A stretch of DNA of 64,000 bases. Source: Shigella phage sb4. The position numbers were made by a program, and so were the translations under genes. The DNA is taken from the sequence record PQ666542; one strand, written 5' to 3'. Below, piece after piece: positions 33,025 to 33,588 of this stretch (the stretch's first letter is position 1; each line of letters starts with the position of its first letter). Under the pieces are notes generated by a model. The model was not told the origin of the DNA, searched no databases, and saw nothing but the letters and a program-made list of their open reading frames with translations.

Positions 33025-33588
33025 TTACCATTCCAATGCTAGTTTTTTGAGTTGTTTCTGTTCTTTTACATTCTTATTCACTTCTTTCAAAAAATAATAC
33101 GTGACTAAAACTTTTAGTTCTTTTAATAATAAATGAAGTTTTCCATTTTTAGTAATAATTTATTTATATTTAATTTCATCATTTGTATTAACTTGATACC
33201 GCTTAGCAAGTAACTTAATAATCAATACTTCGGTAGAATCTTCGACCAGTTTTGCCCATTTACCATATCTTTTACCCCGAGGAACAGCAGCCATCAGATA
33301 ATTAAAATGGGCTTCATCGCTTAAACCTGATCCAATTAAATTCATCGCATATACAGCTGGCATGCATTCAGGAAATTGTGATAATGCGTTCTCAACCATG
33401 TATTTTGAATAATCTTTTTGAGCAATAGAGAATTTAGTTTTATTATTAATAGCTCAAATTATTTCAAAAAATTCATTTTCAGCTTTTTCCTTAAAAGAAT
33501 CAGCAGCAGATTGGACAGCTGTCCAATCTTTTGAATACCAAGCAACTTGATGCTCGTTTAATTGAATATCATCTTCAAATAAGCTCAT
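33025..33588 (-). CDS. 62: clamp-loader subunit gp62; in-frame TGA (33454-33456) and TAA (33160-33162)
   Basis: 188 codons = T4 gp62 187 aa; track shows only a 79-aa middle fragment. Confidence 0.8.

Follow-up and report, generated by a model that had tools for sequence, protein, structure and literature searches.

In-frame stop codons in the clamp-loader gene 62 of Shigella phage sb4: a probable artefact of the public record

Reading frame and identity of gene 62

The record of Shigella phage sb4 (PQ666542) raises the question of whether gene 62, which encodes the small subunit of the clamp loader, is broken in the phage itself or only in the deposited sequence. The window analysed here comprises the first 64 kb of this genome, which belongs to a T4-type phage (Tequatrovirus) resembling phage pSs-1. 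Translation of the minus strand across positions 33000-33588 yields a frame that runs from an ATG at 33588-33586 to a natural TAA terminator at 33027-33025, with 187 sense positions and a stop, and that is interrupted twice before its end. The initial annotation had described this frame of 188 codons with the same two premature stops, and had remarked that only a 79-aa middle fragment appears as an open reading frame; translation and the ORF list reproduce each of these points. The features of the locus are the following.

33025-33588, minus strand: gene 62, clamp-loader small subunit, identified by a match to PF16790 and a full-length alignment with T4 gp62
33456-33454, minus strand: in-frame TGA at codon 45, created by a private C>A change at 33456 (plus strand)
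33162-33160, minus strand: in-frame TAA at codon 143, created by a private G>T change at 33161 (plus strand)
33454-33588, minus strand: N-terminal leftover ORF of gp62, 44 aa (from the ORF list)
33160-33399, minus strand: leftover ORF of 79 aa covering gp62 residues 64-142, starting at Met64 (from the ORF list)

The identity of the gene is firmly established by comparison of its conceptual product with known proteins. The product matches the Pfam family PF16790 (Phage_clamp_A) with an E-value of 1.6e-65 and a score of 220 bits (cut-off 27). An alignment with T4 gp62, which had been proposed as a check on the assignment, extends from end to end (PDB 8uh7_A, 187 aa; residues 1-187 to 1-187, E=2e-110), and the earlier identification as gp62, including the length of 187 aa given for the T4 protein, is thereby borne out. 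The solved clamp-loader structures PDB 3U5Z and 3U60 are matched as well; these, together with 3U61 and 8UH7, are structures of the T4 sliding-clamp loader that include the gp62 small subunit. The genomic position is also that of the family: gene 62 follows gene 44 immediately and precedes regA and gene 43, the order 45, 44, 62, regA, 43 is shared with T4, and so is the 1-nt gap between the gene 44 stop and gene 62.

Moreover, the gene is colinear with that of relatives, without indels, and has the same length of 564 nt. Unlike T4 gp62 and the relatives, however, gene 62 of the window contains two in-frame stops and ten missense changes, and the uninterrupted frame of about 187 codons that is expected of the gp62 family is absent from the record. 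We judge the missing open frame to be a fault of the record and not of the gene. The 79-aa ORF is a by-product of the two stops and not a gene in its own right.

Comparison with related genomes

Close relatives for comparison are provided by Shigella phage pSs-1 (NC_025829, Tequatrovirus pss1), which is colinear over the whole window, and by the Kolkata isolates sb1, sb2 and sb3 (PQ666539-41), which are likewise colinear with it; all of these share the genome start with the window and are about 97% identical to it. The coordinates of gene 62 are offset by +4 in pSs-1 and by 0 in sb2. Eight relatives have GGA (Gly) at codon 45, TCA (Ser) at codon 143 and an unbroken 564-nt gene 62, and the encoded gp62 is identical in five of the eight and identical or near-identical across all of them. 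A 79-aa protein at this locus in relatives, which would have argued against the reading of an interrupted gp62, was looked for as well, and all annotated relatives have a 564-nt CDS instead.

Probing of larger collections gave the same picture. With a 57-nt probe spanning the TGA site, the changed base was found in none of 281 phage records, the closest of which reached 96.5% identity, the value that results exactly from mismatches at the private bases 33431 and 33456. Similarly, a 121-nt probe spanning the TAA site failed to detect the changed base in any of 369 phage records, all of which were at most 94.2% identical to the probe, exactly as seven mismatching private bases would give. A degenerate-pattern scan of IMG/VR recovered six T4-like contigs, all with G at the first site, C at the second and neither stop, and these encode an uninterrupted 187-aa gp62 of 98.9-100% identity. 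Twelve further AT-rich IMG/VR contigs matched the pattern of the TAA site only; they have no gp62 homologue by tblastn and were discarded as chance matches. The disruption of gene 62 is thus common to no related genome examined and is unique to the record.

With respect to the leftover ORF, lookup found no record anywhere of its exact 79-aa product. A homologous-protein search with the same ORF (33163-33399, minus strand) returned zero candidates, even though the product is near-identical to T4 gp62; the index behind this search seems either to lack close relatives of the window or to have failed to reach them. The survey of protein lengths rests on annotated relatives and DNA probes, and not on the homologous-protein search.

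Broken genes and private changes across the window

The interruption of gene 62 has to be viewed against the state of the other genes in the record. When 129 pSs-1 CDS were projected onto the 64-kb window, 25 of them were found to carry a total of 32 in-frame nonsense codons (28 TAA, 4 TGA and 0 TAG). Eight further CDS differ in length from their pSs-1 counterparts, seven by 1-2 nt, mostly as frameshifts, and one by +6 nt, which brings the disrupted CDS to 33 of 129, or about a quarter. The principal features are listed here.

33590-34549, minus strand: gene 44, clamp-loader large subunit, upstream of gene 62; AAA>TAA at codon 245 (33815-33817), a private transversion
29880-32576, minus strand: gene 43, DNA polymerase; GAA>TAA at codon 178 (32043-32045), a private transversion
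32655-33023, minus strand: regA, translational repressor, downstream neighbour of gene 62; intact, 122 aa
188-1516, 3808-4284, 5839-8016, 14888-16207, 17381-17983, 21089-21607: CDS with stops
27327-28169, 29060-29311, 38110-39129, 46829-47302, 52693-53583, 54048-54575: further CDS with stops, among others
16517-17264: srd, differing in length
17980-18605: modB, differing in length
19666-20152: mrh, differing in length
45016-46832: nrdD, differing in length
1654-1810, 43776-43884, 56398-57133, 51656-52684: further CDS differing in length

Other broken genes are 52 (topoisomerase subunit), 56 (dCTPase), 47, dda, rIIA, nrdD and the endonuclease VII gene, and nonsense codons are also present in denB, modA, bgt and imm, with two stops each in rIIA and imm. 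The eight CDS of altered length indicate that the record also contains indel-type errors or variants beside substitutions. T4 genetics has established that DNA replication and growth require genes 43, 44, 62, 52 and 56. Since these essential genes are hit together, a plaque-forming phage cannot carry all of the stops.

The spectrum of the underlying changes was analysed in a seven-genome alignment of positions 21000-45999 of the window with pSs-1, sb1, sb2, sb3, EPIMAM01 and ECp13, in which the changes private to each genome were counted.

Window: 257 private changes, 147 private transversions
sb1: 279 private changes, 147 private transversions
sb2: 81 private changes, 25 private transversions
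sb3: 141 private changes, 21 private transversions
pSs-1: 100 private changes, 11 private transversions
ECp13: 73 private changes, 9 private transversions
EPIMAM01: 60 private changes, 6 private transversions

Private transversions are about 7 to 25 times as numerous in the window as in the clean relatives pSs-1, sb3, EPIMAM01 and ECp13, and only sb1 is comparable. The most common types among the 147 are T>A (73) and C>A (55), whereas about 90% of the private changes in the clean genomes are transitions. The transversions of the window are spread evenly over the three codon positions (41/35/41), and their effects are synonymous in 19 cases, missense in 91 and nonsense in 7. These proportions, 16% synonymous and 6% nonsense, are close to those predicted when the same spectrum is placed at random coding positions, namely 14.5% and 8.7% (p=0.6). 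In contrast, 67% of the private transitions of the window are synonymous, versus 31% expected (p=4e-14). These opposite codon-effect patterns of transitions and transversions imply that the record contains two layers, namely divergence that has been filtered by selection and transversions that have not.

The transversions also tend to occur next to others of their own kind, with 45 adjacent pairs of the same directed type observed versus 29 expected in shuffles (p=0.0014). Runs of a single type are found at the following positions.

21098-21166: G>T, three changes
23026-23078: C>A, three changes
27132-27198: T>G, three changes
36190-36255: C>A, four changes
43879-43900: A>T, three changes

Such same-type runs of neighbouring transversions are the pattern that read-level errors produce, and they suggest that the consensus was set locally by single poor reads or single damaged molecules. 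As for particular error sources, a phasing signature, in which the derived base copies its neighbour, was sought among the 147 transversions; the derived base equals the neighbour in 63 cases versus 72 expected, and Illumina phasing was rejected given this lack of enrichment. Another idea, that two-colour chemistry generated a spurious green signal and thereby G>T and C>A changes on a single read strand, agrees with the cluster in gene 62 but is speculation; it does not account for the A:T>T:A changes, which are just as common and lack corresponding G<>C changes.

The densest run of private transversions lies in gene 62 itself. All 12 window-private changes in this gene are G:C>T:A transversions and all 12 are non-synonymous, with two nonsense, ten missense (C53F, A138E, N140K, L145I, P152H, V154L, G160V, D164Y, D165Y and T171N) and zero synonymous effects. 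They fall into two places in addition to the TGA-creating change.

33431: private C>A (plus strand) producing C53F in gp62, 25 nt from the change that creates the TGA
33077-33176: ten private G:C>T:A transversions in 100 bp, one nonsense (S143*) and nine missense (all of the missense changes named above except C53F)

Within the latter segment, 6 of 12 G, 4 of 13 C and 0 of 32 A were converted, amounting to 40% of the G:C pairs. At the window's own rate for this class (55 per 25 kb), ten changes per 100 bp have a Poisson probability of about 6e-14, and this density was reached in 0 of 2000 random placements.

In its literal sense, therefore, the earlier description of a gp62 gene with two nonsense codons stands; what it implied, a notable inactivation specific to this gene, is unsupported, because 25 of 129 CDS together contain 32 in-frame nonsense codons, of which these are only two, and because the pair sits within an unselected G:C>T:A cluster. 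The two stops accordingly inform on the quality of the record and not on the phage.

Record error and competing explanations

Taken together, the comparisons lead us to propose, with high confidence, that the stops in gene 62 are errors of base calling or of the consensus, introduced into an assembly of low quality, rather than mutations of the virus. The features by which an artefact can be recognized in an assembled sequence, namely an abnormal spectrum, a neutral distribution over codons, clustering, and joint incompatibility with viability, are all found in this record. A layer of transversions, mainly G:C>T:A and A:T>T:A, overlies ordinary divergence consisting mostly of synonymous transitions; these overlying changes, often in short same-type runs, were never exposed to selection, and wherever they struck GAA, AAA, TTA, TCA or GGA codons they created TAA or TGA. 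The actual phage almost certainly has GGA (Gly45) and TCA (Ser143) and produces a normal 187-aa gp62.

The physical cause may be low read coverage combined with damage to the reads or poor base calling. Oxidative 8-oxoG damage is a known sequencing and library artefact dominated by G>T/C>A, and such artefacts share with the cluster in gene 62 the strict G:C>T:A class, the clustering and the lack of selection; they do not explain the large A:T>T:A component of the window (73 of 147). Counting against the reading as record errors in general, NovaSeq sequencing and SKESA assembly with quality trimming normally yield an accurate consensus.

Alternatively, the stops could be real mutations in a hypermutated or defective genome, arising from oxidative damage, a mutator polymerase or propagation with co-infecting helper genomes. 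G:C>T:A is the classic signature of 8-oxoguanine, the cluster in gene 62 is strictly G:C-specific, and the DNA polymerase gene of the window itself is likewise different from that of relatives. We nevertheless consider real mutation very unlikely: simultaneous stops in genes 43, 44, 62, 52 and 56 prevent a lytic T4-type phage from propagating, lethal or deleterious changes numbering more than 30 cannot become fixed in the consensus of a lysate, and conversion of 40% of the G:C pairs within 100 bp corresponds to no known in vivo pattern. Furthermore, the transversions lack the purifying selection that is evident for transitions of the same genome, which indicates that they did not go through replication cycles. 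The classical conditional-lethal nonsense mutants of T4 replication genes likewise have nonsense codons in 43, 44 and 62; each of those, however, combines one defined mutation with a matching suppressor host, whereas here 32 stops of two types are distributed over 25 genes.

A related possibility, which we regard as extremely improbable, is that the packaged DNA of this isolate truly bore the lesions or mutations seen as the G:C>T:A run of gene 62 and as the remaining same-type runs. Localized strand-specific hypermutation would have produced them, for example through host or environmental oxidative attack on glucosyl-hydroxymethylcytosine DNA, and they would have been captured owing to the largely non-viable state of the sequenced particles.

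Hardly any weight can be given to the idea that the stops are read through by virtue of a reassigned code, suppressor tRNAs or programmed readthrough, such that full-length gp62 is made. Recoding of TAG or TGA does occur in some phages, and tRNA genes are present elsewhere in the genomes of T4-type phages; none were found within the 64-kb window, the T4-type tRNA clusters lying in the rest of the genome. However, recoding is rejected given that there is no consistent correspondence between stop codon and amino acid: two types of codon make up the 32 stops, and the residues they replace are of eight kinds (E, K, L, S, G, Q, R and Y). Gene 62 itself terminates naturally at a TAA, hundreds of relatives have no stop at either site, and the stops are accompanied by unselected missense changes of the same mutational class.

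Finally, a true split or degeneration of gene 62 in this lineage, the 79-aa ORF being a remnant that still functions, has a negligible probability. An ATG-started ORF does exist at 33160-33399 and split genes are known in T4-type phages, but the gene has taken up no insertion, its pieces have neither a new start nor a ribosome-binding region of their own, its length of 564 nt is that of relatives, and conservation among relatives is 100% over residues 1-63 and 143-187, which the ORF lacks. Moreover, the 79-aa product is found in no relative and its exact form is unrecorded, no independent isolate with the same three pieces was found, 24 other genes are broken in the same way, and neither a disruption common to relatives nor a relaxation of selection limited to gene 62 was detected.

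On the strength of these sequence comparisons, the stops in gene 62 almost certainly stem from the poor quality of the public record and do not represent a biological feature. They have no bearing on phage biology, and their relevance is one of data hygiene; the same reading is advisable for the other broken genes of the window (43, 44, 52, 56, rIIA, nrdD etc.).

The sibling records from the same study bear on this interpretation. The four Kolkata phages, ADG1 (PQ666539), AKR2 (PQ666540), CRD3 (PQ666541) and TMC4 (PQ666542), were sequenced on NovaSeq 6000 with quality trimming, assembled with SKESA and annotated with Prokka (PMC11993411); the isolates sb1-sb3 came from lake water in Kolkata. 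TMC4, the phage of the window, is reported to have a genome of 164,971 bp with 291 predicted proteins, compared with 254-255 in two clean genomes, and a GC content lower than theirs; 285 proteins are predicted for sb1/ADG1 (PMC11993411). Fragmentation of genes and G:C>T:A errors would produce just such an excess of proteins and lower GC content as TMC4 shows. The same signature is present in sb1 (PQ666539, 21005-46008), where 112 of the 147 private transversions are of the C>A class, 13 are nonsense, and genes 41, 43, 46 and nrdD are split. Fragmented genes inflate the gene counts of both this record and that of the window; both breed spurious 'hypothetical proteins', such as the 79-aa ORF, and both would mislead analyses of pseudogenes, recoding or selection. 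In sb2 (PQ666540) the signature recurs in a milder form, with gene 43 split in two, and sb3, from the same study, looks clean.
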